A DNA stretch of 64,000 nucleotides from Oscillospiraceae bacterium (lineage in GTDB: Bacteria; Bacillota; Clostridia; Oscillospirales; JAVBNY01): assembly GCA_031551205.1 (NCBI GenBank), contig JAVBNY010000010.1:6113-70112 (forward strand), written 5' to 3'. The position numbers and the translations under genes are program-made. Shown here piece by piece: positions 1 to 16,295 of the stretch. Within the stretch, counting starts at the first letter, position 1. Each line of letters starts with the position of its first letter. The notes beneath the pieces were generated by a model that worked only from the letters and a program-made list of their open reading frames with translations, was not told the DNA's origin and did not search any database.

Positions 1-2680
1 CCTGACCGCCAAGTTCACCTATGGCGGCGCTTCTGCCAGTCGGACATTTGTCATTACGGTCTGGTCTCGGTCCGCGGCGGCTGAAGAGGCCAGCGGTAAC
101 GAGGCATATCTGCAAAACGCCGCGGCTTCGTTAGGCAGTTTTTACAAGCTGACACCTATTTACGGCACCGATAACAATGTCATTGATATGCTCTTGGCGA
201 ACCTTCTCGCGAAAGGCTATGGCGACATCTCCGTGGCGGTAACAACTGCCACCAAGGTATATGGCAACTGCGGTATTTCCTCAAACGGCGATATCACCTA
301 TTTCTACGCCGACCCCAATGGAACGCGTGGCGTCTGGTTTGGCCGTTATGACGTGACCTTTACCCTGAGCAAGGACGGCGCAAGTTGCGAGCTGCCCGCC
401 GTACCCGTCACCATCCATTGGGATGCGGACGCGGCAAAGCGGGTCATGAGCGACGAAATCCTCAGCGGCGTGAATGAGTCCGCTATTCTGGGGAACAACG
501 AAAGTCTAAACAGCGTCACCTCAGATTTGAACCTTCCCAAGATAGTGGACAGCAAGAAGTGGACGCTGGTTTCCTGGACCTCCTCCGACTCCGGCACGGT
601 CTTTATCAGCAACGAAAACCAGGGTACAGCCGACACTTTGTTTAACCCCTATGTGTGCAAGGTAATTCGCGGGGCTGTGGATAAGAAGGTCACCCTCACC
701 GCCGCCTTTACCTTCCGGCGCACCAGCTCCGAACCCGCCATTGTCCTGTACAAGGTCTTTACCGTCACGGTCAAAGCTCTGAGCGGCGCGGAGGCTGACG
801 CCGCCCGGGCGGCACTGCTGGAAAAGCTGGAAGCCGGTTTTTCCGCCAAAGGGCTGCGCGACTGTATAACCGGAGCTCCCCTCAGCCAAAACGGCGATGT
901 ATACCTTGCGGCCAATGACATTCAGTTCCCAACCACCCGGGACTTTGGCGTGGACGGAAAAAACTACCCCATTACCATTACCAGCAGCAATGAGGATGTA
1001 ATCGTTGCCCCCGATGTGGCCAACGCAGCCCGGGTCAGCGTCTATCGGCCGCTCGCGGGCCGTTCGGCCGAAACGGTTATCCTGACCGTGACAATTACAG
1101 ATAAAGAAAAGGGTATCTCCGCCTCCAAGGATTTTACCGTTGAGGTACAGCCCCTGACCCAAGGTGAAATCGATAGCGCGCTGGCCTTGATGACCTTGAC
1201 CAAAGATAGCTACTTTGACGGCTTGAACAAGGGACGCTATACGGACGCTTTTTCAGTAACAGGTGGTCTTTCCTCTTTCAACGAAGCGGTCTGGAATGAC
1301 AGCGCAACCGCCGTTAAATGGATTTATTCAAGCACCGAGATGACCGGGAACAGTATTATCGCCGATGAGCTTCCAGGCTGGGCAGAGCAGGAGGCCTGGC
1401 GGGCCTTCCGCTCCAGCAACCCCAAAATACTGGACCATGAAACTTTGAATCTCCCGGCAAAGCCCAATGAGGACACCTTCGTTGGCGTAAGCAGCGTGTT
1501 GACCCATGAGATTTTCGGAAAGTACTGGGAGCGGTTCGCCGGGGAACCCGGGTACGAGGCTTTTGAAACGCTCTATAAGCAGCCGGTTTCGGCCTATGTG
1601 ATGGTGGTTGGGAAAACACATCAGGAGCTGCCCCAAGAAGCTTTAATGGGCTTGCGCACTTTGGCGGTGGCCAGAATTAACGCCCCGATATCGGTAAGCT
1701 TTGTGTTAAAGGGGCCTGACGGAACCTTGATTGATACCCCCGTCTCGGGGCTCAGCTCGGGCGCTACGGTTTTTGAAGTGTTCCGTCAGGTGCTTGACCA
1801 GTGGGGTTACACCTATTCCGCAAAGGGCAGCTATGTGCAATCTGTTACAGACACCAACGGGATTACACTGGCAGAGCAAGACAGCGGCCCCAATTCCGGG
1901 TGGATTTATCGGGTAAACGGCGCTCTGCCCGGCGTGTACATGAATGGATTTTCTTTGGAAGACGGCGACGAGGTCATTGTAACTTTCACAAAAGATTACA
2001 CAAAGGAAGCGGGGCTTAACCCCGGAGGTTCAGGGGACGGGGGTTCGCCGTCGGGTACAGCACCTTCCGAGCCTGTCCCGGATACCGGCGTACCTCTTGC
2101 CGGGATACCCTTTGCCGATGTGGCCGAATCCGACTGGTTTTACGAGGATGTGGGCTTTGTATGTGAAAAGGGACTTTTTAACGGCACGAGCGCCGCAACT
2201 TTTGCGCCAAACTTATCTATGACCAGAGCCATGCTGGTAACGGTGCTGAATCGCATGGGGATAAATAACCATGATACTTATGGCGTGGAGGCCGAGCATC
2301 CCCGCAATTTTAACGATGTGCCTGCCGGAACCTGGTATACCGACGCAGTCCGCTGGGCGGGCGGAGCGGGGATTGTAAACGGCATTGGGGAAGGCAAGTT
2401 CGGACCGGAGCTTTCCGTTACCCGGCAAGACTTGGCCGTTATGCTCTGCCGTTATGCGGAGGCTATCGGGTTTGAGCTGCCGAAAACACGGGATACGGCG
2501 GCATTTGCCGACAACGTCCAAATTTCCGGCTACTCAAAAGATGCCGTTACCGCGCTATATCGGGCAGGCATTATCAACGGAAAAAGCAATAATATTTTTG
2601 ACCCAACCGGAACAGTGACACGGGCCGAGGTGGCGGCCATGCTGCATCGGTTTATGGAAGTGGTAGAAAAAGCAAGTTAA
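1..2680 (+). CDS. Large cell-surface protein with Ig-like repeats, DUF4430-like domain and three C-terminal SLH domains (5' end outside window)
   Basis: The frame is open from position 2 to the stop at 2680. It contains GPNSGWIYRVNG (DUF4430-like) and SLH motifs FADV..WFY, TRAMLVTVL, TRQDLAVML and TRAEVAAML. Confidence 0.85.
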   Translation, partial: LTAKFTYGGASASRTFVITVWSRSAAAEEASGNEAYLQNAAASLGSFYKLTPIYGTDNNVIDMLLANLLAKGYGDISVAVTTATKVYGNCGISSNGDITYFYADPNGTRGVWFGRYDVTFTLSKDGASCELPAVPVTIHWDADAAKRVMSDEILSGVNESAILGNNESLNSVTSDLNLPKIVDSKKWTLVSWTSSDSGTVFISNENQGTADTLFNPYVCKVIRGAVDKKVTLTAAFTFRRTSSEPAIVLYKVFTVTVKALSGAEADAARAALLEKLEAGFSAKGLRDCITGAPLSQNGDVYLAANDIQFPTTRDFGVDGKNYPITITSSNEDVIVAPDVANAARVSVYRPLAGRSAETVILTVTITDKEKGISASKDFTVEVQPLTQGEIDSALALMTLTKDSYFDGLNKGRYTDAFSVTGGLSSFNEAVWNDSATAVKWIYSSTEMTGNSIIADELPGWAEQEAWRAFRSSNPKILDHETLNLPAKPNEDTFVGVSSVLTHEIFGKYWERFAGEPGYEAFETLYKQPVSAYVMVVGKTHQELPQEALMGLRTLAVARINAPISVSFVLKGPDGTLIDTPVSGLSSGATVFEVFRQVLDQWGYTYSAKGSYVQSVTDTNGITLAEQDSGPNSGWIYRVNGALPGVYMNGFSLEDGDEVIVTFTKDYTKEAGLNPGGSGDGGSPSGTAPSEPVPDTGVPLAGIPFADVAESDWFYEDVGFVCEKGLFNGTSAATFAPNLSMTRAMLVTVLNRMGINNHDTYGVEAEHPRNFNDVPAGTWYTDAVRWAGGAGIVNGIGEGKFGPELSVTRQDLAVMLCRYAEAIGFELPKTRDTAAFADNVQISGYSKDAVTALYRAGIINGKSNNIFDPTGTVTRAEVAAMLHRFMEVVEKAS

Positions 2681-2684
2681 TAAT

Positions 2685-2718
2685 GAAGGGCGCAGGATGT
2701 AAGTCCAGCGCCCTTTTT
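2685..2718 (+). terminator. Intrinsic terminator
   Basis: AAGGGCGC.GGA/TCC.GCGCCCTT stem followed by a T-run, just after the SLH gene stop. Confidence 0.75.
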
Positions 2719-2776
2719 ATAGAAGACTGAGCCTCGCTTTGGGTGTAGCCATAGCTGCATTCTGTTATTTTTAATA

Positions 2777-3610
2777 TCACTTCAATGCCTTCACGGGACA
2801 TGACCTCACGCATTCATAGCACAAAATACACTCCGTCCCATTTTCTCTGCTGCGGCGGTTATCAAGCATATCGACATTCATCGGGCAACCCTTTTTACAT
2901 TTGCCGCACGAAATACAAGTCTCGTGGCTGACTTTGATTCGCATGAGTGAAAAGTAGCTGATAGGTTTTAGGAATATTGTGATAGGACAGATATACTTAC
3001 AAAATGCCCGGTTATCCTTGAACGCATAAGCGAGCGCAATGCCAACCGCATAATAAAGGATATTCCCCACAATAAAGCTGATAAAAACAAGGTCTTCCAA
3101 GTTGGATGGGCGCAGGATAAACAGGGTTAAGGTGTACAGCAGAGACAGCAGAAAGATGGCGAGTCTAAGCATTCCCAGTTTTTTACGGCGCGGCGCGGCG
3201 GGTATTTTATACGGCAGCAAATCAAGCACCATCGCAGTCCAGCAAGCATAACCGCACCAGCCGCGCCCAAACAGCAGAGGTCCGGCAATCTTAGCTACAA
3301 GATAATGAATGACAGCGGCTTGGAAAACACCTAAAAAGAGATAATACCAAAAGCCTTCTATCTGCATGTTTTCACGGCAGATAATCCCAAGATAAACCAG
3401 CATATATAAACCAACCGCGAACTGAACGGCCATTCTCGCGTGGCGAAAGCCGGAGAAATATAAAGACACGCCGATGGCAATCGCCGTTCCGATATATGTA
3501 AAGTTGAGCAGATAAAACAGGTTATCGAGTGAAAGCCATAAAATGACGGCTACAGCCTCAAAAGCGAGCCACAACAAGAACGGTATTCTATATTTCTTTA
3601 TGTTTTTCAC
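2777..3610 (-). CDS. Membrane polyferredoxin (4Fe-4S binding, NapH/YccM-like)
   Basis: Several TM helices, GRGWCGYAC, FCKYICP and two CxxCxxCxxxCP motifs. Confidence 0.85.
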   Translation of the reverse strand: MKNIKKYRIPFLLWLAFEAVAVILWLSLDNLFYLLNFTYIGTAIAIGVSLYFSGFRHARMAVQFAVGLYMLVYLGIICRENMQIEGFWYYLFLGVFQAAVIHYLVAKIAGPLLFGRGWCGYACWTAMVLDLLPYKIPAAPRRKKLGMLRLAIFLLSLLYTLTLFILRPSNLEDLVFISFIVGNILYYAVGIALAYAFKDNRAFCKYICPITIFLKPISYFSLMRIKVSHETCISCGKCKKGCPMNVDMLDNRRSRENGTECILCYECVRSCPVKALK

Positions 3611-3700
3611 CTCAAATCAATCTTATTGGGCAACCGCTAACTGCTCTGCAATAGCCATAATATACAGATTTCCACTTGGACCCACAAAGCGTTCCTGTAC

Positions 3701-3860
3701 TTATTCGTCCCCCGCATCCATTTGTTCGATTTTTTTGCGGTGTGGTTTGCTCGCCTTCAGGGCGGGCTTTTTTACGGGTTCTGAAGGTTTCTTCCCCGGA
3801 ACATATTCAATCAAATCGGCAACCGTGCAGTCCATTGCCAATACTGCTCGGCGCAAAGCA
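3701..3860 (-). pseudogene. C-terminal remnant of a Cro/C1 HTH protein
   Basis: Manual translation gives ..AVLAMDCTVADLIEYVPGKK.., a typical XRE C-terminal tail with no N-terminal helices. Confidence 0.4.
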
Positions 3861-3862
3861 TT

Positions 3863-4069
3863 TCAAACCTTTTCACCGGTGTCATTCATCACAAAGCTTA
3901 TGTCAAGGGTACAGTTCAAAGCCTCAGCAATTTCCCTGAGCTCACTTTCGCTAAAATTGTCACGTCGCAACTTATTGCTCAGGTTTTGTGAAGTACATTT
4001 CAATTTTTCTGAAAGTTCTTTGAGACTAATCTTACGCTTTACGAGTAGAATTTTTATTTTTTCAGTCAT
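3863..4069 (-). CDS. XRE-family HTH repressor
   Basis: ISLKELSEKLKCTSQNLSNKLRRDNFSESELREIAEAL; RBS GAGGTG precedes ATG 4069. Confidence 0.85.
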   Translation of the reverse strand: MTEKIKILLVKRKISLKELSEKLKCTSQNLSNKLRRDNFSESELREIAEALNCTLDISFVMNDTGEKV

Positions 4070-4091
4070 TAAGGACACCTCGCTTTGCTAC

Positions 4092-4187
4092 ATTGTAACT
4101 CTTTGGTGTAGATACGTCAAAAGGTTTTAATAAATAAACCCGAAAGTGAAAAAAGAAATTGACAAATGTAACCCATTGGTGTATAAT
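4092..4187. promoter_or_regulatory. Divergent sigma-A promoters, each with an operator copy over the spacer
   Basis: Minus strand TTGACG-17-TACAAT (4120-4092); plus strand TTGACA-17-TATAAT (4159-4187). Repeat copies TGTAACTCTTTGGTGTA (4094) and TGTAACCCATTGGTGTA (4167). Confidence 0.8.
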
Positions 4188-4240
4188 GAAATCGTAGGGT
4201 TAATTGATATCACATAACTTTTCAAAAGGAGGTGACCCCC

Positions 4241-4549
4241 ATGCCCACGCCAACACCCTACATCGATGCCCTGTTTATGGGCGAGCTCAGGCCGTTCGAG
4301 CGCCTGGAGCCTGCGTTTCCGGAATACAATGAGCTTTGTGAGTTCTCCGCCGCGATGGAGGGCCTGTTTGCCGAGCGGCTCACGCCGGAGTTAAGAGGCT
4401 TTTTCCAGGATGTAGTCGAGAACCGCAGTGAAATCGCCGGGATGCTCGTCCGTCAGGCCTTTGCCGACGGTTACCGCCTGGGCGTTAACCTGATGCTGGA
4501 ATCGCTCGGCCAATTTGCCCTCGACGAAGGCCGGGAAGTCCGGTTTTGA
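4241..4549 (+). CDS. DUF6809-like small protein
   Basis: LFMGELRPFE..EY..L...AFADGYRLGVNLMLE pattern; AGGAGG RBS. Confidence 0.65.
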   Translation: MPTPTPYIDALFMGELRPFERLEPAFPEYNELCEFSAAMEGLFAERLTPELRGFFQDVVENRSEIAGMLVRQAFADGYRLGVNLMLESLGQFALDEGREVRF

Positions 4550-4589
4550 CCATAATATCGCTGCCTAATAAATGAAAGGAGACATATTT

Positions 4590-5279
4590 ATGAATACAAA
4601 CAGCCTGAGCCTGTTGCGCGACCTGCGTCTGCGAGAAGGCCTTACCCAAGCCGACCTCGCCCGGGAGCTGAGATTGACAGAAAACGACATTTCCAGAATG
4701 GAAGGCACCGGCAACCCGACACTTGAAAAATATGAAGCCGCTGCCAACCGCTTCGGCATCCCATGCGACACACTCATCCGCAACGACTTTCCAACCGCCT
4801 ACGCAGTCCTTTTCATCCCCATGGAGGAGGAGCGTGATTGTCTCGATAGTCACATGCGGCGCATGAAGGCGCACAAAAAGGCCGGAAATGAGGGCGAACG
4901 CTGGGTTTACGAATGGGAGCGGCAAAAACTGGCCGGTACCAAGTATTACAGGATGGTGGACCTCAGTCCCTCAGAGAACATCAAAGCTGGGTATGATATC
5001 CGCAGTTGTGACCCTGATGGAGTGCCAATTTTTATCGAGGTAAAGACCACAGCCGACGAAATGGAAAAAGAGTTCTATATGTCATCGTTTGAACGGAGAA
5101 AGGCAATCGAGTTCCTCGAAAAGGGTCTCCGGTATGAGGTTCACCGTGTATTCCATCTTAATGACCCCAAGCGGCGTGGCCGCGAGATTATCACCGGTGA
5201 GGCGCTGCTGGGCGGCGACTTCATCTTTACCCCGAAGGACTATATTGTTTCGCGGAAGGAGGACATTTCTTATGACTAA
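4590..5279 (+). CDS. XRE-HTH fused to DUF3883 (NOV C-terminal) PD-(D/E)XK nuclease domain
   Basis: N-terminal LTQADLARELRLTENDISRME; C-terminal GNEGERWVYEWE..GYDIRS..IFIEVKTT..FYMS..E. Confidence 0.75.
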   Translation: MNTNSLSLLRDLRLREGLTQADLARELRLTENDISRMEGTGNPTLEKYEAAANRFGIPCDTLIRNDFPTAYAVLFIPMEEERDCLDSHMRRMKAHKKAGNEGERWVYEWERQKLAGTKYYRMVDLSPSENIKAGYDIRSCDPDGVPIFIEVKTTADEMEKEFYMSSFERRKAIEFLEKGLRYEVHRVFHLNDPKRRGREIITGEALLGGDFIFTPKDYIVSRKEDISYD

Positions 5280-5733
5280 GCTGGAACGCTGGCGCATTGA
5301 AGCAGGGCTCTCACAGCGGGAATTGGCTGCCCGCGCCGGTGTCGGCGTCTCAACTATTGGTTGTCTGGAGCGGGGAGACTGCAAAACCCGGACGCCGTCG
5401 CTATTAAAACTCAGCAATGCCACCGGGCTGCCCATCATGAGTCTGGCCAAAAAGGCGGAAGGCCTCAATCCCATCCGTAAACACCCCTATCGCTCCAAGA
5501 CCGAGAACCCCGAAAGCCCCATAACCTGCTACAAAAACGCACAGTCCATCACCTTTGAGGAACTGGCGCGGTGGCTGGGCAATACAACTCGCGAGAGCGG
5601 CCGCCAGGCCTGCGCGGCCATGCCCGCCAAAGCCGTGCACATCAAGGCGCTGGCCGCTTTTGAGGGTATCGGCGTTGAGGCCTACCTCCGGCAGTACGGC
5701 ACAGAGAACGGAGGACTTGAAAATGCTTCTTGA
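5272..5733 (+). CDS. XRE-family HTH protein
   Basis: GLSQRELAARAGVGVSTIGCLERG; overlaps the upstream stop (translational coupling). Confidence 0.75.
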   Translation: MTKLERWRIEAGLSQRELAARAGVGVSTIGCLERGDCKTRTPSLLKLSNATGLPIMSLAKKAEGLNPIRKHPYRSKTENPESPITCYKNAQSITFEELARWLGNTTRESGRQACAAMPAKAVHIKALAAFEGIGVEAYLRQYGTENGGLENAS

Positions 5734-6061
5734 GGTCTTTGTTCCGGAAGAGGGACGCTCATACAACGGCGGCACTTACCGGGCATACATTGCTCGGATT
5801 ACCGGCAGAGACGAGCGGTTTGACTTCAAACGACAGTTTCTCCGGCCGGTTTTGAAGGAGGGTGACCGGGTTTATGATATCGTGGCCGATGGGATTTATG
5901 AGGAGAGCGTTAAGTGCTTCGAGCAAGGAACCGGCCGCTTTCGCTGCCGCAACCGTGAGTTCTTTGTTTTTCATGGTGAAGAATACTATGTGATTTCCCC
6001 CAGTGAGGTGCTGGAATACGTGGACTGCCCGGAGGCTGCTGCGCTCCGGTATCCGGCTTGA
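5723..6061 (+). CDS. Hypothetical protein (112 aa)
   Basis: GGAGG RBS; coupled to the upstream gene; YRAYIARITGRDERFDFKRQFL. Confidence 0.65.
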   Translation: MLLEVFVPEEGRSYNGGTYRAYIARITGRDERFDFKRQFLRPVLKEGDRVYDIVADGIYEESVKCFEQGTGRFRCRNREFFVFHGEEYYVISPSEVLEYVDCPEAAALRYPA

Positions 6062-6075
6062 CGGGAGATGTGAAT

Positions 6076-6216
6076 ATGAGCAACAACAAGCACCCGCATC
6101 GAACGACTCAAGAACGGCTGGAAGCCTTTTATGGAAAGCCGCTCTATGAAATTGAGCCTATAGATGTCGAGGAAATCGCTGGAGCGCACCGAAAGACGAA
6201 AAAAGTAAAACCATGA
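6076..6216 (+). CDS. Small ORF resembling the C-terminal tail of AbrB/MazE-type antitoxins
   Basis: MSNNKHPHRTTQERLEAFYGKPLYEIEPIDVEEIAG..; GGGAG RBS; ATGA overlap with the next gene. Confidence 0.45.
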   Translation: MSNNKHPHRTTQERLEAFYGKPLYEIEPIDVEEIAGAHRKTKKVKP

Positions 6217-6395
6217 CCCAGATTAACTTTGTTTCGGTGGAGACTATCGCGGTGGATGATGCGCTGCTGGAAAAGGCGAAGGGAGTCTTCGCCGAAAACA
6301 ACCTGACTATCACGCAGGGCATTGAAATCTATCTTCGGTTTATAGACATGCATGGAAAGCTTCCCTTCGGGGTATTGCCCACGCCGGAGGGCTGA
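6213..6395 (+). CDS. RelB/DinJ-like antitoxin (RHH)
   Basis: VDDALLEKAKGVFAENNLTITQGIEIYLRFIDMHGKLPF matches the RelB/DinJ pattern. Confidence 0.65.
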   Translation: MTQINFVSVETIAVDDALLEKAKGVFAENNLTITQGIEIYLRFIDMHGKLPFGVLPTPEG

Positions 6396-6440
6396 GATGG
6401 AAAGACCCCGCCGGAAGATGTGAAGGAATAATGACAAGCG

Positions 6441-6466
6441 AGCCCGCTGCGATAAGCAGCGGGCTT
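6441..6466. terminator. Hairpin terminator after the accessory operon
   Basis: AGCCCGCTGC-GATAA-GCAGCGGGCT perfect stem. Confidence 0.55.
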
Positions 6467-6812
6467 AAATTTATAGAAAATATTTTTCAGTCCGTGTTGC
6501 CCAAAAAGAAGAGCCGGCGCGAAGCGTCGGCCCGCTCCCGAGCGGCGAAAATATGCAAAATTTCACGTAAAAGACTGCGAAGCACTTTGCCGCTCGAAAA
6601 AGGCCTGGAGGCCTTGTGCCGCAGGGCCTCGTCCGTTTATAACTTTGACCGCAGGTCAAATTATAAATGTACGCGACCGCGGCCGTTATCAATGGGCGGC
6701 AGGCATGCCGCCGACCTTTTTAAGCACCCGCTTAAGCTCCGGATTTATACCACATTTCGCTATAAAAGTAAAGCAAGTATGGTATAATGAAATAAAAAAG
6801 TTTTAAATTGGC

Positions 6813-6841
6813 TTGCGTTCGGAAAATATTTGTGGTACAAT
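6813..6841 (+). promoter_or_regulatory. Sigma-A promoter upstream of the structured leader
   Basis: TTGCGT-17-TACAAT with extended TG; a second TGnTATAAT lies at 6780-6788. Confidence 0.6.
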
Positions 6842-6889
6842 AAAGGCACCATAAAGAAGTATTTTTTAATTATATATAGATAAATATTA

Positions 6890-7800
6890 TGATGAGACAG
6901 GGCTACCCGCGAGGGGAACCTTGTCTTTTTTTATTTTCAAACCTTATACTCAATGGAGTTACTTTACCTTTGCCTGCGTCGCAACAAACCGCGCCTACCC
7001 TTGTGCAGGTACGCCAACGTTGAGATGGAGACAATTTTGGATGGGTGCAGAGTCGCCCAAGCCTTACGCTGATGTCTGGTCGCGCATAGCTGCGACTTGA
7101 TTCCAGCAAGGTAACCATTTTTACTAAGGCACGCTGTTATTCCGCCGTCGCAAAGCCGGGGGTGGGATGGCAATGGGTGGACGGATAGCAAGGCCCAACC
7201 CGTTTCATCATAGCATCGAAGGAGCTTATAACGAAGCCGGTCACCCGTTATGGGCCGCACCAAAAGGCGCGGCTGGTGATGAACTGTCTGGCATCTAACG
7301 ATGCGGCATGTACCCACATTGCCGCGGATAGAGAGAATCTGACTTGGACCGGGCGCATAGCCGCCCGTGTCACTGGTGTTTGCTTTGCAAAGTCAGGCTA
7401 ACGCCGTCCGGCCGCTGGAACCCCGCAAAACAGCGTCTACAGGTCGGATACAGGTCATTCCAACCGAGCATTTGCCGTTGGTTGCGTCAATCTGTTCCTA
7501 TGTCTTTTTTAGGTTTGTATTGGCTATCTGACAGCAAGTACAAAAGAGGAATGCCTCCCACCACACGGGTGGGGAAAGAGAAGGGTCTGGTACCACGGCG
7601 CATAGCCGCCGTGACACCGACCAAGGCCCGCGGCACACCGTTCGCATTTGGCAACGGTGTGCTGCCCGGGCAAAGGAGGAGCATGACCCGGCATTCGGCT
7701 GGGAGTATGCTCCTCCTTTGCGTTCCCAGCGACCAAAATCCTCGCAAGAGGTGGGTAAGAACCGAGTGAAAGAAATCGGTCTGGACTCAACACGTCCCCA
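6890..7800 (+). ncRNA. Candidate large structured ncRNA or leader (unknown family)
   Basis: No credible ORF; many stems with G-U pairs and GNRA loops on the + strand; three hairpins with an identical CATAGC loop. Confidence 0.55.
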
Positions 7801-7829
7801 ATAATTACAAAAATCAGGAGGGTTCAACC

Positions 7830-8897
7830 ATGAACCGCATTAAATACGCCAGCACCGAAGAACGCCAGCGTGTTACCAAGCTGGCACGCGGCATCAGCAA
7901 ATCTCTTCATGAGCTCAACGCTACTGGAACATCTAAGCGCGAAGCCCGCGCCGAGCATAACGCGAAGCTTCAGGCCAAGGCGATTGCCGAAGGCCGCGAC
8001 CCTAAAAAGCTTCGCTATGATGCTTCGCCGGGCATCCACAGTTTTGGCACAATGGACGGATACTGCAAGGACTGTGAGCGCGCCCTGCGTTGGGTGACCA
8101 AACGTCATCCCGAGGTTACAACCATACGCTTTGCTTACAAAAAGGGCTATCTTCGTGAGTACATTCAAGATTGCATCGACCGCGGGTTGGCTGCGCACAC
8201 AATTGACAAGTACGCCTGCGCCCTTGCGAAGCTGCTCCGGGTACACTCCTGGGAAATTCATGACAACAAGCCAAGGCGCGACTACCGCAAGTACACCCGC
8301 TCCCGTGGGTACAGCGAAGCGCGTTTCGAGCAGGACCGTTCCAAGTATTCGTCCAAATACGGGCCTATTATCGACCTCATGCGCTGTACCGGGGTTCGGA
8401 GAGAAACCTTTGAGACTTTGTACCCTGAGTCCTTTGTGGAGGGGCCGGGCGGCAAGCTTTATCTCCCTGTGGACGGCAAGAAGATTAAAACCAAGGGCGG
8501 TCGGCCCGGGCTCATCGAAATCATAGATGAGAATCAAGTTAAGCTTCGCGAGCTCTTGGCGTTGTTCCCCAAGGGGCAGCTCATCTGCCCCAAAGTCCCG
8601 AACCAAATCGACGAGCACGGGATTCGGTCGCTTTACGCGGAAGACTTTTATTTCGCAATCGCCCGGCCCATAGACAGCATCCCCCTGAACGAGCGTATCC
8701 CCCTCAAAAACCCCAAATTTGACAATCGTCCGGGCAGGAAGCCCCGCACATCCGTCCCCGGGATTTATCATCGCAAGGACGGCCGCCTCTTTGACAGGAA
8801 GGCGCTCCTTCGCATTTCAAAGTCGCTGATCCACGAGCGAGATGACGTGGTGGCTCAAAATTACCTCTGGCGTAGCGAGCCGCTGAGAAAGCGGTAA
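7830..8897 (+). CDS. Tyrosine recombinase-like protein (Integrase_1-like)
   Basis: Catalytic set R (TGVRR), K (TKGGR), HxxR (EHGIR), H (LIHER), Y (QNYL); AGGAGG RBS. Confidence 0.8.
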   Translation: MNRIKYASTEERQRVTKLARGISKSLHELNATGTSKREARAEHNAKLQAKAIAEGRDPKKLRYDASPGIHSFGTMDGYCKDCERALRWVTKRHPEVTTIRFAYKKGYLREYIQDCIDRGLAAHTIDKYACALAKLLRVHSWEIHDNKPRRDYRKYTRSRGYSEARFEQDRSKYSSKYGPIIDLMRCTGVRRETFETLYPESFVEGPGGKLYLPVDGKKIKTKGGRPGLIEIIDENQVKLRELLALFPKGQLICPKVPNQIDEHGIRSLYAEDFYFAIARPIDSIPLNERIPLKNPKFDNRPGRKPRTSVPGIYHRKDGRLFDRKALLRISKSLIHERDDVVAQNYLWRSEPLRKR

Positions 8898-8968
8898 TTT
8901 GCAATCAAACGCGGTTCATAACGGACAACCCGGGTGCCATATCTTAATATCAGAAGGGAGTGGGAAAA

Positions 8969-9223
8969 GTGCTGAATAAAAAAGACCTCGAAGTCATGAG
9001 CGGCTTCGATATCACCGCGCTTGACCCCTCCCGTCTGGTGGATATCACCGAGGTGAAGATTGACCCCGGCGCACCCGATGCCGACAGGCTGGACGATTTT
9101 TTAAAGCAGATAGAAAATCCCTATTGCTACCGTGTAAACAATACCCCTGTCAAGATACGGTTTGGTCAGGGGAAGCCATATCTTGACCAGGTTTTAGAGG
9201 ACTATTTTACCCAAAACAAGTAG
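8969..9223 (+). CDS. DUF6870-like protein (usually precedes large serine recombinases)
   Basis: LVDITEVKID..RLDDFLKQIENPYCYRV..VKIRF pattern. Confidence 0.7.
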   Translation: MLNKKDLEVMSGFDITALDPSRLVDITEVKIDPGAPDADRLDDFLKQIENPYCYRVNNTPVKIRFGQGKPYLDQVLEDYFTQNK

Positions 9224-9289
9224 CTTCTTTGCCCCTGCTCTGTTATAATGAGATTGTGATTATAAGGGGCAACGAAAGGAGATTTTGCA

Positions 9290-10975
9290 ATGCCCCGGAT
9301 ACGAAAAAACCGAAATATTGAACATCGGCAAACCTTGTTCTGGTCGGTCTGTCTTTACATCCGTTTATCCCGCGAGGACAATAACGACGATGAAAGCGAG
9401 AGCGTCATCAATCAGGAAAAAATCCTCCGTGATTTCATCGAGAGCCATTTTGAGCTCGGTACCTACGAAATTGTCGAGGTCTTCGCTGACGACGGACGCA
9501 CCGGCACCGACACGAACCGCCCCGAGTTTCAGCGCATGAAGGAAGCTATTATAGACAAAAAGGTCAACTGTGTGGTTATGAAGTCTCTGTCCAGAGGCTT
9601 TCGCAACCTCGGCGACCAGCAGAAGTTCCTTGAGGAGTTTATCCCCTTGCACGGCATTCGCTTTGTCAACATGAGCTCCCCATTCATCGACACCTACAAC
9701 GACCCGCGCTCGGCAACCGGCCTTGAGATTCCCATAAGGGGAATGTTCAACGAACAGCACGCCGCCACCACCTCCGAAGAGGTCCGCAAAACCTTTCGGA
9801 TGAAGCGTGAGCGGGGTGAGTTCATCGGCGCGTTTGCTCCCTATGGCTACAAAAAATCGTCCGACAACAAAAATGATTTGGTTGTAGACGATGAAGCGGC
9901 GCAGGTGGTGCGCGACATCTTTTACTGGTTTATAAGCGATGGGATGAGCAAGAGGGGCATCGCCCAGAAGCTCAATGAACAGGGCGTTCCAAACCCCAGT
10001 GAGTACAAGCAAAGGCACAGCCTGAACTATCAGAACCCCAATTCTGATAAAAACGACGGTCTTTGGAGCGCCAACACAGTTTCCCGCATTTTGCAAAACC
10101 CTGTGTATATCGGGAACATGATACAGGGCCGCTACCGCGTTATTTCCTATAAGGTGCACAAGCAGATTCGAACGGCTGAAGATGAGTGGTTTGTCGTGGA
10201 AAACACCCACGAAGCCATTATCGACAAGGGCACGTTTGACAAGGCGCAATCGCTCCATCAGCTGGATACCCGGGTCGCTAACGGCAAGCAGGAGGTTCAT
10301 TTATTCAGTGGTCTTATCCGTTGTGCCGACTGCGGAAAGGCCATGCACCGCAAGACCTCCCGGAATATTGTCTACTATTTCTGCCGTTCCTTTGTCGACA
10401 AAAAGGTTTGCAGCAAGCATTCTATCCGTCTTGATGAACTGGAAAACGCTGTGTTGGTCTCCATTCAAAAGCAGGTTGAGCTTGCCGGGTCGCTGGAAAA
10501 AGTCATCGAGCGGATAAACAATGCTCCCAATCAGCACCGGGAGTCCATGCGGCTGACCCATGCGCTAAGCGATGCGGAAAAACAGCTGGCCAAATACAGC
10601 AATGCCGCAGACGGCCTGTATATGGATTGGAAATCGGGCGATATTACCCAGCAGGAGTACCACCGCTTGAAAGGCAAGTACACGGGACAGATTACCCAAT
10701 TGGAGAACACAATCAGGCGGATACGAGAAGACATGCAGGTGATGGCTCATGGTATTGATACCGAAAACACCTACTTTACCGCTTTTCTCAAGCACAGAAA
10801 CATACAAAGCCTGAATCGCGGAATCCTTACCGACCTTATCGACACAGTTTGGATTTACGAGGGCGGCGAAGTGATGATTGATTTTAACTTTGCCGACCAG
10901 TATCAGCAGATTGTTGATTACATCGAGAATAACCGCAACAACCTTGTGTTAGTAGAGAATAAGGCCGCTGTGTAG
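9290..10975 (+). CDS. Large serine recombinase (resolvase, recombinase, Zn ribbon, coiled-coil/DUF4368)
   Basis: YIRLSRED, DDGRTG, RPEFQRM, KSLSRGFR, APYGY, SGLIRCADCG. Confidence 0.92.
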   Translation: MPRIRKNRNIEHRQTLFWSVCLYIRLSREDNNDDESESVINQEKILRDFIESHFELGTYEIVEVFADDGRTGTDTNRPEFQRMKEAIIDKKVNCVVMKSLSRGFRNLGDQQKFLEEFIPLHGIRFVNMSSPFIDTYNDPRSATGLEIPIRGMFNEQHAATTSEEVRKTFRMKRERGEFIGAFAPYGYKKSSDNKNDLVVDDEAAQVVRDIFYWFISDGMSKRGIAQKLNEQGVPNPSEYKQRHSLNYQNPNSDKNDGLWSANTVSRILQNPVYIGNMIQGRYRVISYKVHKQIRTAEDEWFVVENTHEAIIDKGTFDKAQSLHQLDTRVANGKQEVHLFSGLIRCADCGKAMHRKTSRNIVYYFCRSFVDKKVCSKHSIRLDELENAVLVSIQKQVELAGSLEKVIERINNAPNQHRESMRLTHALSDAEKQLAKYSNAADGLYMDWKSGDITQQEYHRLKGKYTGQITQLENTIRRIREDMQVMAHGIDTENTYFTAFLKHRNIQSLNRGILTDLIDTVWIYEGGEVMIDFNFADQYQQIVDYIENNRNNLVLVENKAAV

Positions 10976-11023
10976 CAAATGGCGCGGTTCTCTGCTTTCC
11001 TTTCATCAATGTGTTGTGTGTAA

Positions 11024-11728
11024 ATAGACGGCGCCACCGGCCCACAGGGGCCGCAGGGCACTCAGGGGCCGATAGGCCCAATCGGAGCGACCGGAGCAAC
11101 CGGGGCAACAGGCGCGCAAGGGCTTCAGGGCATTCAGGGCCCTATAGGCCCAATCGGAGCGACCGGGGCAACCGGTGCGCAGGGCCTTCAAGGCATTCAG
11201 GGGCCCCAGGGGCCGCAGGGACTTGCCGGCGTGCAAGGCCCACAAGGGCCGCAAGGGCCGCAAGGTGTTGCCGGCCCGCAGGGGCCACAGGGTATTCAGG
11301 GGCCGCTCTCAACAAATGATTACGCCATCGCGGAGAGCAACACGCCTCAGAGCGTGGTGTCCGGCGGGCTGATAGAGATATCAAACCAGTCTTATCTTTC
11401 GACGGCCTCCTTTGCGGACACCTCGCCCACCGTCATCACCATACTGGCCTCCGGTACCTACAGGATCGATTATAAGATCATGGCCGAGGGTCAGCGAGAC
11501 GCCGCCATCTATCTGAACGGTGTTTTGTTATCCACAAGCCACCACTTCAACGCACTCTCCGGCGCGCTTATTGGGACTGCGATAGCGGTAATCCCGGCGG
11601 GGCAGACGCCCTCCGCCCTGACGCTCAGGAACACAAGCGCCCTGCCGATGAACATTCCGATCTACGCCGGGAGCATTATTCCGGGCACCCCTTCCAACGT
11701 CTACGTCGTGATCACAAAATACGCCTGA
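11024..11728 (+). pseudogene. 3' part of a BclA-like collagen-repeat (exosporium-type) gene lacking its start
   Basis: Gly-X-Y repeats start at ~11030 directly after an in-frame TAA (11021), with no RBS or ATG; BclA_C-like beta domain (GTYRIDY). Confidence 0.75.
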
Positions 11729-11772
11729 GCGGCGCCTCTCATTTCCCCGTTTGACTAAAAGGGGAATACGAT

Positions 11773-11805
11773 GAAAAACTGCCTTCCAAACGGAGGGCAG
11801 TTTTT
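11773..11805 (+). terminator. Intrinsic terminator
   Basis: AAAACTGCCTTCC-AAAC-GGAGGGCAGTTTTT. Confidence 0.75.
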
Positions 11806-11806
11806 C

Positions 11807-11876
11807 TAGGGCGTGCCGACACTAATGGAAATGCTCAGATTTCAAGCATATTTTGCTCTCGTGTCAGCACTATCTA
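11807..11876. repeat. Short, internally deleted copy of the MITE-like repeat at 47873
   Basis: Its reverse complement CAAAATATGCTTGAAATCTGAGCATTTCCATTAGTGTCGGCACGCC aligns with 47986-48031. Confidence 0.65.
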
Positions 11877-11905
11877 AAATGAAAAGGGAATTTTTTATTT
11901 TGCCG

Positions 11906-11935
11906 GTATAATACGGAAAACATGGGGCAATAATA
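11906..11935 (+). promoter_or_regulatory. SigF-type promoter
   Basis: GTATA-15-GGCAATAATA matches the SigF consensus, upstream of the M23 gene. Confidence 0.6.
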
Positions 11936-11955
11936 CATGTCGGAGGTGCATTATA

Positions 11956-12804
11956 TTGAGCAAATACAATGAAAAGACGCGCGGCGTATCCGAATTTTTT
12001 TCTGGAAAGGGATTTTACATAATCCTGATCCTATGCGTCGCGGCAATAGGCGTATCAGGTTATGTTCTGTTCTTCACCGGAAACGACGGCCCATCCGCGG
12101 AAACGGCAGGCACGGAGCTTGTCGCTGTCCCGGACGATTCAGCGAGAGACTATGTTAACAGCGCGGTCAGGGACGAGCTCGGCGCGGCGGCCGGCAATAT
12201 TTACGACGCCTACGACCTTCCGGAGCCTGTGACAGCGCCGGAAAGCCTGATGGTCTCACCCTCGGCCTCTCCAAAACCTTCAGCAAGTCCTGAGGCAAAA
12301 CCGGGCGCGAAAACCGAAAAACCCGCCACGGATAAAAAGACGCCTTCCGGTGCGGACGAACCTGCCGCAAAAACCGCGGCAGTGGGCGGATCGTTCATCT
12401 GGCCGCTGAACGGCAAGGTTTCTCAAGCCTTTTCAAAGGACGAGCTCGTTTTCAACTCGACGCTTGACGACTGGCGGGTGCACACAGGGGTTGACATCGA
12501 GGCCCCTTCCGGCGCGAAGGTCGCCGCAATCAGCTCGGGTACTGTCGAGGACGTGTATGACTCTGAGCTCATGGGCACAACCGTTATCATCGACCACGGA
12601 AACGAGTTGAAAAGCGTGTATTCAAACCTCATGGCGAAACCGACCGTCAAAAAGGGCGACAAGGTCTCCCCCGGCGACATTATCGGCGGTGTGGGCGACA
12701 CGGCAATCGGCGAAACCGCGCAGACATCTCACATCCACCTTGAGGTCATCAGGGACGGAGCTCAGATCGACCCCGAGACAGTCCTCCCGAAAAAGCAGCC
12801 TTAG
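11956..12804 (+). CDS. M23 peptidase, SpoIIQ-like
   Basis: N-terminal TM GFYIILILCVAAIGV, HTGVD and HIHLE motifs, SigF-type promoter. Confidence 0.8.
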   Translation: MSKYNEKTRGVSEFFSGKGFYIILILCVAAIGVSGYVLFFTGNDGPSAETAGTELVAVPDDSARDYVNSAVRDELGAAAGNIYDAYDLPEPVTAPESLMVSPSASPKPSASPEAKPGAKTEKPATDKKTPSGADEPAAKTAAVGGSFIWPLNGKVSQAFSKDELVFNSTLDDWRVHTGVDIEAPSGAKVAAISSGTVEDVYDSELMGTTVIIDHGNELKSVYSNLMAKPTVKKGDKVSPGDIIGGVGDTAIGETAQTSHIHLEVIRDGAQIDPETVLPKKQP

Positions 12805-12819
12805 CTCATATAACACAAC

Positions 12820-12850
12820 CGGGCCCGCTGAAATAAATCAGCGGGCCCGC
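12820..12850. terminator. Bidirectional terminator hairpin
   Basis: CGGGCCCGCTGA/TCAGCGGGCCCG between convergent genes. Confidence 0.7.
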
Positions 12851-13006
12851 ATCAAATCTTTCCCCTAAATGCGCTAAAACAACTGTAAGGCAAATCCAAA
12901 ACAGGTTTACACCGATAGTATATCTCTTTATCTGTCGGTTGTCAACTTCTTTCTTCGCGGATACGTAAAAAATTGCGCGCCTGCCTACATACGGCCCGGC
13001 ATCGCC

Positions 13007-14974
13007 CTATGCGCCCGACCGGAGTTTGATAATCTGGTCGCGCAGCACGGCGGCGTACTCAAATTCAAGCATCTTCGCAGCCTTCCTCATGTCGGTCTCA
13101 AGCTTTTCAATCGCAACCTTGCGCTCCCTCTCGGTCATCTTCACACCGTCGCGCCCGGAGGCGCCGCGGGAGGCGGGCTTCGAAATCTCGATCAACTCGC
13201 GGATGCTCTTTTTAATCGTCTTCGGGGTAATGCCGTGCTCAAGGTTATGAGCCTGCTGGAGCTCGCGGCGCCTGTTTGTCTCGCCGATAGCGCGCTCCAT
13301 CGACGGGGTTATTTTGTCGGCGTACATGACGACGCGGCCCTCGGCGTTTCGCGCGGCGCGGCCGATAGTCTGAATAAGAGAGGTTTCCGACCGCAGAAAG
13401 CCCTCCTTGTCCGCGTCCAGTATCGCGACGAGCGACACCTCCGGCAGATCCAGCCCCTCGCGCAGAAGGTTTATGCCGACAAGGGCGGAAAACTCCCCGG
13501 CGCGCAGGTCGCGGATGATCTCCATACGCTCCATCGAGTCGATGTCGTGGTGCATGTACCGCACCTTGATGCCGACGGTCTTCAGATAATCCGTCAGATC
13601 CTCGGCCATCTTTTTAGTCAGCGTCGTGACGAGCACGCGCTCGTCACGCTCCGCGCGCATATTTATCTCCGCTATCAGGTCGTCGATCTGCCCCTCTACG
13701 GGGCGAATGATCACCTCAGGGTCGCAAAGGCCCGTGGGACGGATCACCTGCTCGACAATCTGCCCCGACCTGCTTTTTTCATAGTCCGACGGCGTGGCTG
13801 AGACGTATACGATCTGGTTCGTCTTGCCCATAAACTCGTCAAAGTTCAGCGGGCGGTTGTCGTAGGCCGATGGAAGGCGAAAGCCGTAGTCAATGAGGTT
13901 CGCCTTGCGGGAGCGGTCCCCGGCGTACATCGCGCGCACCTGCGGCACCGAGACGTGCGACTCGTCGATGATCAGGAGGAAATCCTTGGGGAAGTAATCA
14001 ATCAGCGTGTTCGGCACGCTGCCCGGCGGGCGGCCCGACATAACGCGCGAATAGTTTTCAATCCCGGAGCAAAATCCGAGTTCCCTGAGCATCTCCATGT
14101 CGTAAAGTGTGCGCTGCCTTATGCGCTGCGCCTCCAAAAGCTTGCTCTCCTCCTCAAAAAACCGAACCCGTTCCCAAAGCTCGCGGTCGATCTCCTGAAT
14201 GGCGGCGTCCATCTTTTCCCCCGACGTGATATAGTGCGACGCCGGGTAGATCGCGACGTGCGACACATGCCGCCTGAGTTCCCCCGTGAGCACCCCGATC
14301 TCCGATATGCGCTCGACCTCGTCGCCGAAAAATTCGACCCTGAGCGCGTAATCGCTGACATAGGCAGGGAAAATCTCAACCGTATCGCCCCGGACGCGGA
14401 ACTTGTTGCGCTCAAACGCGATGTCGTTGCGCTCGTAGCGTATCGAGACGAGCTTTCGCATAAGCGCGTCGCGCTCAAGCATCATGCCCTGGCGCAGGGA
14501 GATGACCATCGACGCGTAGTCGATAGGGTCGCCGAGGCTGTAGATGCACGACACCGACGCGACGACGATCACGTCGCGACGCTCAAAGAGCGAGGAGGTG
14601 GCGCTGTGTCTGAGGCGCTCGATCTCGCTGTTTATTGCTGAGTCCTTCTCAATATACGTGTCGGTGTGCGCGATGTAGGCCTCGGGCTGGTAATAGTCGT
14701 AGTAGCTTACAAAGTACTCGACCGCGTTTTCGGGGAAGAACTCGCGCAGCTCGGAGCAGAGCTGGGCTGCGAGAATCTTGTTGTGCGCGAGCACCAGCGT
14801 CGGGCGGCGCACCCGCTCGATGACCTTTGCCATTGTATACGTCTTGCCCGAGCCGGTCACGCCGAGCAGCGTCTGCTCCTCAAGGCCGTTTTCAATGCCA
14901 AGGGCCAGCTTTTCGATCGCCTGCGGCTGATCGCCTGCGGGCTCAAACTCGCTTATTACCTTAAATTCCGCCAT
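13007..14974 (-). CDS. uvrB: Excinuclease ABC subunit B
   Basis: [34 protein letters not shown]-terminal UVR domain. Confidence 0.97.
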
Positions 14975-16295
14975 AATCCCCTCCCGGCCGGATGGCCGCG
15001 TCATCGCCTGCTGAAACCGCTCCCATGAGAAATTCATCCCCGAAGTGCTCTATCCTGACGGGGAGAACTCTCCCCCGCAGGCCGCTCCCCGGCGCCCTGA
15101 CCTCCAAATAGTTTTCCGACGTGCCGGAGCAAACGCCGCCTTCCTCGCTCTCGAACAGGACGGAAAGCGTCCTGCCGGCCATTTTTGCGCAATAATCGCG
15201 CGACATCCCGAGCTTCACCGCCCCGGCGCGCGCCGCCCGCTCAGACCTGACCGCCTTCGGGATTTGATCCCTCATTGAGGCCGCCGGGGTGCCCTCGCGG
15301 CGGGAAAACGGGAAGATGTGCATCGAAGCGAACCCGCACTGCCTGATAAACTCGAGCGTCTCCTCAAACTCGGCCTCCGTCTCTCCGGGAAAGCCGACGA
15401 TCAGGTCCGTCGTAACGGCGCAGAGCGGGAAGTAGGTCTCCAGCAGACGTAAAGTTTCCAGAAAGCGCTCTGGCGTGTATCGCCTGCCCATACGCTTGAG
15501 CGTAGCCGCGCACCCGCTCTGGAGCGACAGGTGAAAGTGCGGGCAGAGGTTAGGCTGCTTTGATACCGCCTCGCAGAAGTCCTCGCCAACCGTGCGCGGC
15601 TCGAGCGAGCCGAGCCTCACCCTCACATCTGGCGCGGCTTCGCACACGGCTGTCACGGCTTCCGTGAGCTTCACGCCTCCCAGGTCTTTTCCATAAGACG
15701 AAAGCTCAATCCCGCAGAGCACAAGCTCGCGATAACCCTCTTTTTCGATCCCCTCGGCCATCTCTGCGGCATCTTTTGGCGGGAGAGATCGCACTCCTCC
15801 TCTGGCCTTCGGGATAATGCAATAGGTGCAGTGATTGTCGCACCCGTCCTGTATCTTTAGGAGCGCGCGCGTCCGCCCTCCAATGGACCCCGCGGGGAGC
15901 CTCTCAAACTCGGACGGAAAGCCCGAAATTTTTACGCCCAGCGAGGCGTCTCTCCCCGAAAGCAACGGCTCCAGCTCGCGCAGAAAATCTGCCCTTCCGG
16001 CGCTGCCCGAGATGAAAACCACACCGTCAAGCTCCGAGAGCGCGCCTCCGTCCAGCTGTGAAAGGCACCCGCACACGGCGACGCGCGCCCCCGGGTTCCT
16101 TTTCAGCGCCGCACGCACAGCTGTGCGTGACTTCCGCGCGGATTCTCCGGTGACGGCGCAGGTATTTATGATATAAAGCCCCGCAGCCGCGCCAAACGGG
16201 ACAATACTGTGCCCCTTTTCTCGCAAAATCCGCTCGAGCGCCTGAGTTTCATACTGATTGACCTTGCAGCCGAGCGTGTAAAACGCAATATCCAT
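14961..16295 (-). CDS. mtaB: tRNA t6A37 methylthiotransferase
   Basis: [31 protein letters not shown]. Confidence 0.92.

Follow-up and report, generated by a model that had tools for sequence, protein, structure and literature searches.

Three hairpins with an identical CATAGC loop lie in a non-coding, highly structured leader of ~890 nt (6940..7829, plus strand, defined by codon scores and folding), directly upstream of a divergent tyrosine recombinase-family gene in Oscillospiraceae bacterium assembly GCA_031551205.1. The whole stretch of DNA analysed, hereafter the window, comprises 64,000 nucleotides of contig JAVBNY010000010.1, and all positions are counted from its first letter. The CATAGC hairpins are genuine, far beyond chance, and are maintained by selection. 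We propose, with slightly less than even confidence, a joint reading in which they are repeated recognition stem-loops on the plus strand of a ~0.9-kb structured untranslated leader RNA, and in which this leader is the first part of an operon that codes for the divergent tyrosine recombinase-family protein (P0001), a DUF6870 protein and a large serine recombinase, the whole belonging to a small integrated mobile element.

A shared loop on varied stems

Hairpin 1 (GTCGCG-CATAGC-TGCGAC) extends over 7074..7101, with its core at 7079-7096 and its loop at 7085-7090; hairpin 2 (CGGGCG-CATAGC-CGCCCG) extends over 7347..7371 (core 7350-7367, loop 7356-7361), and hairpin 3 (CACGGCG-CATAGC-CGCCGTG) over 7589..7618 (core 7594-7613, loop 7601-7606). 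All three were taken on the plus strand from sequence and fold, and below each core the fold places a bulge or small internal loop followed by three further pairs. An earlier note on this DNA, the original prediction, had claimed hairpins at 7079-7096, 7350-7367 and 7594-7613, and these coordinates are exactly right. The loops are 271 and 245 nt apart, as it had also said; the distances are similar, and its description of the hairpins as regularly spaced holds only loosely. Its further claim that the stems differ and yet stay paired is borne out by a three-row alignment, in which 20/21 stem cells are paired and 4/7 pairs are changed on both sides. This result was reached by 5/500 shuffles, and slid-alignment controls of the stems were 29-52% paired.

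Within the 64-kb window the 12-mer GCGCATAGCYGC is matched exactly three times, each time on the plus strand between 7082 and 7609. With one mismatch allowed there are 6 matches in the window against 1.26 expected, a number that 0/100 shuffles reach. The whole 2.13-Mb assembly holds 6 exact matches (0 for a reversed-pattern control), and the three copies beyond the leader are inside open reading frames (ORFs), with stems of only 3-4 bp. At the leader's composition, the chance of a 6-bp stem around a given loop, G-T pairs allowed, is ~0.0027; a fourth CATAGC in the leader, at 7213, is without a stem.

Hairpins 2 and 3 are each part of a ~60-nt unit in which a first hairpin and an AGAGA-rich linker precede the CATAGC hairpin; the two units are paralogous, so the two hairpins are not fully independent. 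According to the fold, the front half of unit 2 (7302..7346, plus strand) consists of hairpin X2 (7302-7326) and the purine-rich linker GATAGAGAGAATC, and that of unit 3 (7556..7593, plus strand) of hairpin X3 (CCCACC acacg GGTGGG, 7556-7574) and the linker GAAAGAGAAGGGTC. Unit 1, around hairpin 1, is more divergent than units 2 and 3. This paralogy would suit hairpins that are left over from a local duplication, or that stabilise generically and have no specific partner, as would the lineage-specificity of the motif (see below) and the many other hairpins that the fold places in the leader. However, paired changes account for the divergence of the stems since duplication, whereas all three hairpins, that of the divergent unit 1 included, have the same 6-nt loop and the same three inner pairs, and a neutral loop would be expected to drift faster than its stem. 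We therefore regard either of these as very improbable indeed.

Loop shape and other hairpin classes

The CAUAGC loops can form an AUA pseudotriloop with a bulged pyrimidine, as predicted from the letters of the loop. As described in part of PMC3884659, a pseudotriloop is determined by three features: its closing pair is G-C, a C-G pair forms across the loop, and a 3' pyrimidine is bulged. The pseudotriloops in the iron-responsive element (IRE), the hepatitis B virus (HBV) epsilon and the brome mosaic virus (BMV) promoter hairpins are protein recognition sites. By sequence, all three determinants are present in hairpins 2 and 3 (G[CAUAGC]C), which speaks for recognition hairpins that act in RNA. 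In hairpin 1 (G[CAUAGC]U) the minimum free energy (MFE) fold is already GC-AUA-GC with a bulged U. The IRE, HBV and BMV cases are eukaryotic or viral RNAs with which the predicted shape of the window's loops is compared.

Several other classes of hairpin were considered and rejected. ANTAR targets are hexaloops that need A at position 1 and G at position 4, according to the portion of PMC8934654 consulted, and the loop C-A-U-A-G-C has neither. None of the three hairpins is followed by a U run, as an intrinsic terminator would be, and their centre is non-palindromic, which does not fit a telomere-resolvase-type target. In core sites of tyrosine recombinases an identical centre is flanked by conserved arms of about 11-13 bp, and integron attC sites have R and L boxes with extrahelical bases. 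Neither class was retained, as only three inner arm bases are conserved here and a whole hairpin measures 18-20 nt.

The original prediction had also compared the TAGC letters of the loop with CS-6 of ssoA single-strand origins, and had seen in the hairpins an array-like division of the leader into ~250-nt modules. In the part of PMC4598088 consulted, ssoA origins carry CS-6 (TAGCGT or TAGCGA) in a terminal loop, together with an RS_B sequence. The ssoA of rolling-circle plasmids and the window have in common hairpin-rich non-coding DNA and a TAGC-containing loop. The motifs themselves are absent: there is no TAGCG[T/A] on either strand in 6940-7830, the CATAGC of the loops being followed by C or T, and the best leader match to the RS_B 17-mer of pSELNU1, the one RS_B example tried, has 6/17 mismatches. 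There is also no Rep gene among the 14 ORFs scanned. As for an array, there are only three copies at unequal spacing, the segments between the hairpins are conserved-looking hairpins rather than variable spacers, no similar array was found in the 95 homologous loci, and none of the 14 two-site loci described below is related. Only the TAGC letters and the roughly 250-nt spacing speak for ssoA-type origins or for units of a CRISPR-like or guide array, and we consider either one extremely improbable.

Coding status, folding and RNA cover of the leader

All seven ORFs of the leader (59-141 aa) have negative codon scores, from -0.24 to -0.63 per codon, compared with +0.17 to +0.61 per codon for 13 real genes of the window, and the GC dip at codon position 2 is missing in all seven. 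The leader is a single copy in the assembly. It folds on the plus strand with an MFE of -362.6 kcal/mol (z = -5.85, 36 G-U pairs) and on the minus strand with -346.6 kcal/mol (z = -4.13, 27 G-U pairs), each against 80 dinucleotide shuffles; earlier runs with 20 shuffles gave z values of -5.6 and -6.1. The better folding of the plus strand supports recognition hairpins that act in RNA. None of the Rfam 15 covariance models matched at E<=1 within 5500-9500.

RNA cover was read from assembled contigs of metatranscriptome run X2, from the same study as the probable source sample; such contigs reveal neither the strand, the ends nor the level of an RNA, and their depths cannot rank genes. A 377-nt contig without any difference to the window covers 7250..7626 (depth 6.6), a 260-nt contig lies inside the P0001 gene (depth 2.1) and a third, of 1658 nt, covers the serine recombinase (depth 10.1). 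From 5500 to 7250 there is no RNA cover, and the DNA depth is flat at 11.7. Uneven RNA cover despite flat DNA depth argues for RNA rather than carried-over DNA. A second RNA run, X3, gave nothing from the region, which is not evidence of absence.

The original prediction took the hairpins for protein-binding or processing elements of a leader. Given the compensating stems, the non-coding status, the excess folding and the presence of RNA, this part is reasonable; the array of modules attached to it found no support.

Relatives of the leader and of the motif

The long, ORF-poor upstream region is a trait of the P0001 family. The upstream gap without ORFs of at least 100 aa has a median of 626 nt and reaches at least 700 nt in 28/58 loci. 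In the sister clade, mostly Agathobaculum (32-36% identity), the upstream region is 72-84% conserved between subgroups and holds a covarying structure of its own. For its ~165-nt core, which abuts the start codon, 33 pairs are predicted; compensatory changes are seen in 11, and several are G-U in most or all sequences, and this on the sense strand alone. Examples are L013:4765-4932, L008:4542-4705, L019:3281-3445, L010:4703-4863 and L009:1232-1390, among others. Both this structure and the family-wide upstream region support a leader RNA with recognition hairpins. A covariance model of the structure, R1, finds 21 places, all of them in the Agathobaculum-type clade, and Rfam matched only a tRNA in six homologous loci, leaving the structure unmatched. 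In subgroup D of the clade two hairpins share a UGCGUU loop on different stems, a parallel to the window. Some elements have two of these structures, each preceding a recombinase paralog, with a TnpB gene in between; TnpB (OrfB_IS605 / Cas12f-like) genes adjoin the recombinase-leader units at L009:2976-4148 and L013:2342-3490.

Like the window leader, the sister-clade structure stands directly upstream of homologous recombinase genes, and its arrangement, with a purine-rich linker between one hairpin and a variable second one, resembles units 2 and 3 by eye. Unlike the window, it has different loop sequences, and there is no profile or covariance match between the two: an nhmmer profile of the structure did not detect the window leader. 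The best R1 match in the window, at 5340-5473 on the minus strand (E = 0.0017, 16.4 bits), is antisense inside a helix-turn-helix (HTH) repressor gene and was set aside as probably spurious. A second model, of an upstream hairpin-linker-hairpin domain, was dropped, as RNAalifold gave only 4 pairs.

Several observations weigh against recognition hairpins in a leader RNA. The stability of the hairpins themselves points to neither strand, as hairpin 1 is more stable as RNA on the plus strand (-11.3 kcal/mol, -8.4 on the minus strand), whereas hairpin 2 (-15.7 on the minus strand, -14.2 on the plus strand) and hairpin 3 (-19.3 and -14.8) are more stable on the minus strand. The segment 6907-7250, hairpin 1 included, is without RNA cover, and the contig downstream of it shows neither the strand nor the ends of its RNA. 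R1 fails to detect the window leader, its best plus-strand match being hairpin 3 at E = 1; at this value only, it aligns hairpin 3 to the sister clade's variable hairpin, with the same UACC...GA flanks. Most directly, a CATAGC-loop hairpin with a stem of at least 5 bp occurs in 0/95 homologous loci (13 from species genome contigs, 79 metagenomic and 3 from viral contigs). The original prediction had named absence from homologous loci as grounds for refutation, and for this specific hairpin the motif is indeed absent near the homologous recombinases. In the L003/L017/L028 lineage (44% identity) the 9-mer CGCATAGCC is shared with the window, about 290 nt ahead of the ATG compared with 229 nt for hairpin 3; there it is predicted to straddle a stem and not to form a loop. 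Finally, pairs of hairpins with the same loop occur upstream of homologs in 6/60 loci and in 0/84 stretches of coding and downstream DNA, a rate not clearly above that of DNA further upstream (3/50).

Other searches with the leader and its motif agree in finding little beyond the window. A two-site pattern scan of 185,579 species genomes matched 14 loci, none of which shares DNA or recombinase with the window, and the one match with good stems, L102, turned out to code for a peptide repeat on the opposite strand. Together with its absence from the 95 loci, this indicates that the motif is lineage-specific. CATAG is not enriched across the family (42 observed, 42.8 expected, in 50 upstream regions), and among the upstream regions counted only those of the window, pSC262 and L062 hold four CATAG each. 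When the leader was compared with all loci by blastn, only chance matches of 26-32 nt were obtained (E about 9.5). A single-protein search of the species genome contigs with P0001 found no relative, and the GTDB family comprises only this genome. Upstream of a 29%-identity homolog, L076 has three identical hairpins, ccgta-CACTTAC-tacgg, about 850, 790 and 565 nt before the gene, with unvaried stems.

Other parts of the leader and a possible mechanism

Two extended -10-like elements on the plus strand, TGgTATAAT (~6782-6790) and TGgTACAAT (~6834-6842), were noticed by eye in 6782..6842; a promoter consensus scan flagged neither of them and only TTGTCT-18-TATACT at 6921-6950. A terminator-like, promoter-proximal hairpin, GAGACAGGG...CCUUGUCUU followed by a U run, occupies 6893..6935 on the plus strand by sequence and fold, and the scan found in it an inner stem at 6909-6924 plus the T run. 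Beyond the CATAGC hairpins the plus strand folds into a long hairpin at 7626..7671 (-32.3 kcal/mol), and an inverted-repeat search found a perfect 15-bp repeat, GCAAAGGAGGAGCAT / ATGCTCCTCCTTTGC, at 7670..7721. The latter pairs the Shine-Dalgarno-like AAAGGAGGAG (a pseudo-Shine-Dalgarno) with the anti-Shine-Dalgarno-like CTCCTCCTTT, 95 nt upstream of the real Shine-Dalgarno sequence AGGAGG, which is at 7816..7821 on the plus strand, 8 nt ahead of the ATG. Comparable AAGGAG...CTCCTT hairpins are present in L028 and L004, and we think that the AAAGGAGGAG/CTCCTCCTTT hairpin may gate translation. Upstream of the promoters, a near-perfect palindrome, TTTATAACTTTGACC gca GGTCAAATTATAAA, was observed in intergenic DNA at ~6637-6668; it could be an operator or half of an attachment site.

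It is tempting to propose the following course of events. Transcription would start at one or more promoters near 6790-6950, and the terminator-like hairpin at 6893-6935 would stop or trim most of it. RNA that reads through would fold into a chain of hairpins, in which the three G-[CAUAGC]-C loops would present one small surface three times to a protein encoded by the element or by the host. The bound protein could then set the stability, the processing or the translation of the leader and the operon, and the downstream AAAGGAGGAG/CTCCTCCTTT hairpin could decide whether the real ribosome-binding site is open to ribosomes. From the features described above we infer that the hairpins work as RNA and not as DNA, that their loops take the pseudotriloop shape, that a protein binds them and that the binding has a regulatory effect.

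The operon and its recurrence

The gene that follows the leader (7830..8897, plus strand) codes for P0001, a protein of 355 aa that homologs and a structure model identify as a divergent, two-domain member of the tyrosine recombinase family. P0001 has no match at thresholds in Pfam (none at E<=0.01), PHROG or NCBIfam; among 24 family members, 15 have weak matches to PF02899 and 4 to PF00589. A total of 166 relatives were found, the nearest of which (P0002-P0009) are 47-49% identical. R190, K222, H263, R266, H335 and Y345, that is, the R-K-H-R-H set and the tyrosine nucleophile, are invariant across 24 homologs. The AlphaFold2 (AF2) model (predicted local distance difference test score, pLDDT, 90.6) has a two-domain fold, with a core-binding, SAM-like N-terminal helical domain and a catalytic domain. 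The PDB matches listed by Foldseek are all tyrosine recombinases (XerA, XerH, Tn1549 Int, Cre, lambda Int and Brujita Int), with probabilities of 0.94-1.0, E-values of only 1e-3 to 3e-2 (best 1.1e-3) and low template modelling (TM) scores. P0001 is thus a tyrosine recombinase-family protein, and a very divergent one.

Downstream on the plus strand come the DUF6870 small protein (8960..9223, Pfam E = 4.8e-23) and the large serine recombinase (9290..10975), which begins 393 nt past the P0001 stop and has the Pfam domains Resolvase, Recombinase and Zn_ribbon_recom. The term DUF6870 was absent from the literature searched, and a tblastn of the protein against the homologous loci gave nothing at 1e-5. 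A Pfam scan of the 14 ORFs of 188-15037 found no rolling-circle Rep and no conjugation genes, and no att-like repeat joining 3000-6960 to 10940-11080 was found. Directly after the serine recombinase, a collagen-like / BclA_C gene (11011-11728) with repeats of 9-nt period has by far the highest contig depth in RNA run X2, about 240 compared with 10 for the recombinase.

The same-strand trio of tyrosine recombinase, small ORF and large serine recombinase is seen in the window (7830-10975) and in 20/49 related loci: a large serine recombinase follows the homolog on the same strand within 3.5 kb in 20 of the 49 evaluable loci, mostly 295-693 nt past the stop of the tyrosine recombinase homolog. 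A promoter, a hairpin with a U run within about 100 nt and a long leader were present in 4/4 lineages examined, namely the window, the L028 group, L004 and plasmid pATHE02; at the equivalent place, promoter consensus scores were 12/12 for L004, 11/12 for pATHE02 and 10/12 for L028. This shared layout speaks for a leader RNA. P0001 relatives are also found on tiny plasmids: pATHE02 (3.65 kb, RepL), whose protein aligns with the family by hhalign at E = 3e-43, rolling-circle plasmids of Streptococcus suis and a 21.8-kb Flavonifractor plasmid. The plasmid-borne homologs have 660-870 nt without annotated genes directly upstream, and MOB-suite types the plasmids of 3.5-5.7 kb that carry P0001 relatives as non-mobilizable. 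Both Bacillota elements and tiny plasmids show this recurring pattern, in which a long upstream region with much structure is followed by a very divergent recombinase, then by a small gene and then by a serine recombinase. As side observations, the upstream region of pATHE02 (L098) has at least 6 GTTAGC iterons, and a 13-mer, TTTAGCAGTTTGC, is common to the upstream regions of pATHE02 and the Flavonifractor plasmid (L100); the positions concerned are 380-490 and 780-800 in L098 and 4417-4433 in L100.

Comparison with known systems

The hairpins could instead work as DNA, as GC-rich inverted repeats with an identical 6-bp centre that are bound, nicked or recombined by the adjacent recombinase-family protein. 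They would then be either part of a transfer origin for a recombinase-like relaxase of the MOB_M type, with the serine recombinase as the integrase, or core-type recombination sites in direct orientation. Tyrosine recombinases require identical crossover regions, and the identical centre with its conserved inner arm bases fits this need; hairpins 2 and 3, moreover, are those that fold better on the minus strand. In the known recombinase-like relaxases MobK, TcpM and MpsA, the origin of transfer (oriT) adjoins the gene or lies upstream of it, and the oriT of SGI1 is a 125-bp array of GC-rich inverted repeats in which the 7-bp perfect repeat IR1 is essential, as far as the consulted parts of PMC6414798 and PMC8152469 describe them. 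The portion of PMC9299015 consulted reports that in SGI1 a strong promoter (P5) gives rise to an abundant short RNA, owing to a terminator-like repeat located 66 bp downstream of the start. A primary RNA of 650-700 nt runs through the oriT; next come the sRNA core (sgm-sRNA) and then mpsA, the gene of a recombinase-like relaxase (parts of PMC9299015 and PMC6414798). The order of parts in the window is the same as in this SGI1 module (PMC9299015, in part). In addition, MOB_M proteins are common in chromosomes and 96% of them are near an integrase (bioRxiv 10.64898/2026.01.13.699239, in part), just as a serine recombinase is found 3' of the homolog in 20/49 loci, and the relatives on small plasmids without a known Mob gene stand behind 660-870 nt without annotated genes.

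Against sites that work as DNA, the comparison of the family with TcpM of pCW3 by hhalign was not significant (probability 0.8, E = 0.068), and P0001 has the core-binding (SAM-like) domain that MobK, TcpM and MpsA are said to lack in the part of PMC8152469 consulted. The outer arms vary between sites and yet are self-complementary, which argues for a folded strand rather than sequence-specific binding to a duplex. The three sites, 245-271 bp apart and spread over ~530 nt, exceed the known oriTs of 125-151 bp. The 14 ORFs scanned include no conjugation genes, and the DNA contigs, which drop rare variants, contain no joint that links the hairpins, a result that is not evidence of absence. On balance, we place sites of this kind, the most serious alternative to our reading, on the unlikely side, and both an RNA and a DNA role could be true at once, as in SGI1.

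As a further alternative, the recombinase pair might need the leader in trans as an RNA, either whole or as a processed piece, comparable to the sgm-sRNA of SGI1 and with the hairpins as protein handles. The layout parallel to SGI1 (PMC9299015, in part) and the conserved structured core of the sister clade would agree with it, as would the RNA contig at 7250-7626 with a depth of 6.6 compared with 2.1 in the recombinase gene, although contig depths cannot rank genes. However, a discrete RNA species is not in evidence, the CATAGC motif is not kept in relatives, and the sister-clade structure abuts the start codon, as is typical of cis-regulatory leaders. We consider a trans-acting RNA very unlikely. 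In the literature searched for RNA-guided or RNA-associated tyrosine recombinases, only work on bridge RNA and seekRNA and some general reviews came up.

On the widest reading, the ~0.9-kb leader would be a large structured RNA of a new kind, at work together with an operon (tyrosine recombinase, DUF6870 and serine recombinase) that is widespread among Bacillota mobile elements and uncharacterised. It would serve either as a transcribed transfer origin or as an RNA cofactor that transfer or recombination needs, the latter being a counterpart of sgm-sRNA in Gram-positive bacteria; in either case the CAUAGC pseudotriloop hairpins would dock the recombinase-family protein. We regard this combination as distinctly unlikely. 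If the hairpins are docking sites, they offer a simple handle for learning what a very divergent recombinase family does, a family that escaped PHROGs and NCBIfam entirely and, for P0001, Pfam at threshold (weak matches only), and that recurs on tiny plasmids and beside serine integrases in gut Bacillota. At the family level the gene pattern looks like a minimal excise-and-move unit, and with this family the newly recognised class of recombinase-like relaxases, whose control regions comprise RNA and an oriT, may reach into Gram-positive bacteria. Taken alone, the three hairpins are a lineage-specific detail, and the wider pattern of operon and leader is more interesting.

Among known systems, TcpM (pCW3) and MobK (pIGRK) share with P0001 the tyrosine-recombinase catalytic set, the occurrence on small plasmids and the adjoining integrases, and have just upstream of the gene a cis site of inverted and direct repeats, to which the repeats of the window would correspond, according to the part of PMC8152469 consulted. 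They differ from P0001 in the missing core-binding domain, and TcpM also in the hhalign result given above. The layout of mobSGI1 is mirrored in the window. No sequence relation between the two is detectable. MpsA needs a separate MpsB, whereas P0001 is a complete two-domain recombinase; the host here is one of the Bacillota and the integrase is a serine recombinase; and mobSGI1 has a single oriT of 125 bp where the window has three identical-loop hairpins over 530 nt. A mobSGI1-like layout is present in the window, with RNA over 7250-7626 only, its strand and ends unread. Like mobSGI1, the window has a promoter with a terminator-like hairpin no more than about 100 nt away, a putative long RNA with little or no needed coding and GC-rich perfect inverted repeats of 6-7 bp, followed by a gene of the tyrosine-recombinase family and accompanied by a separate integrase.

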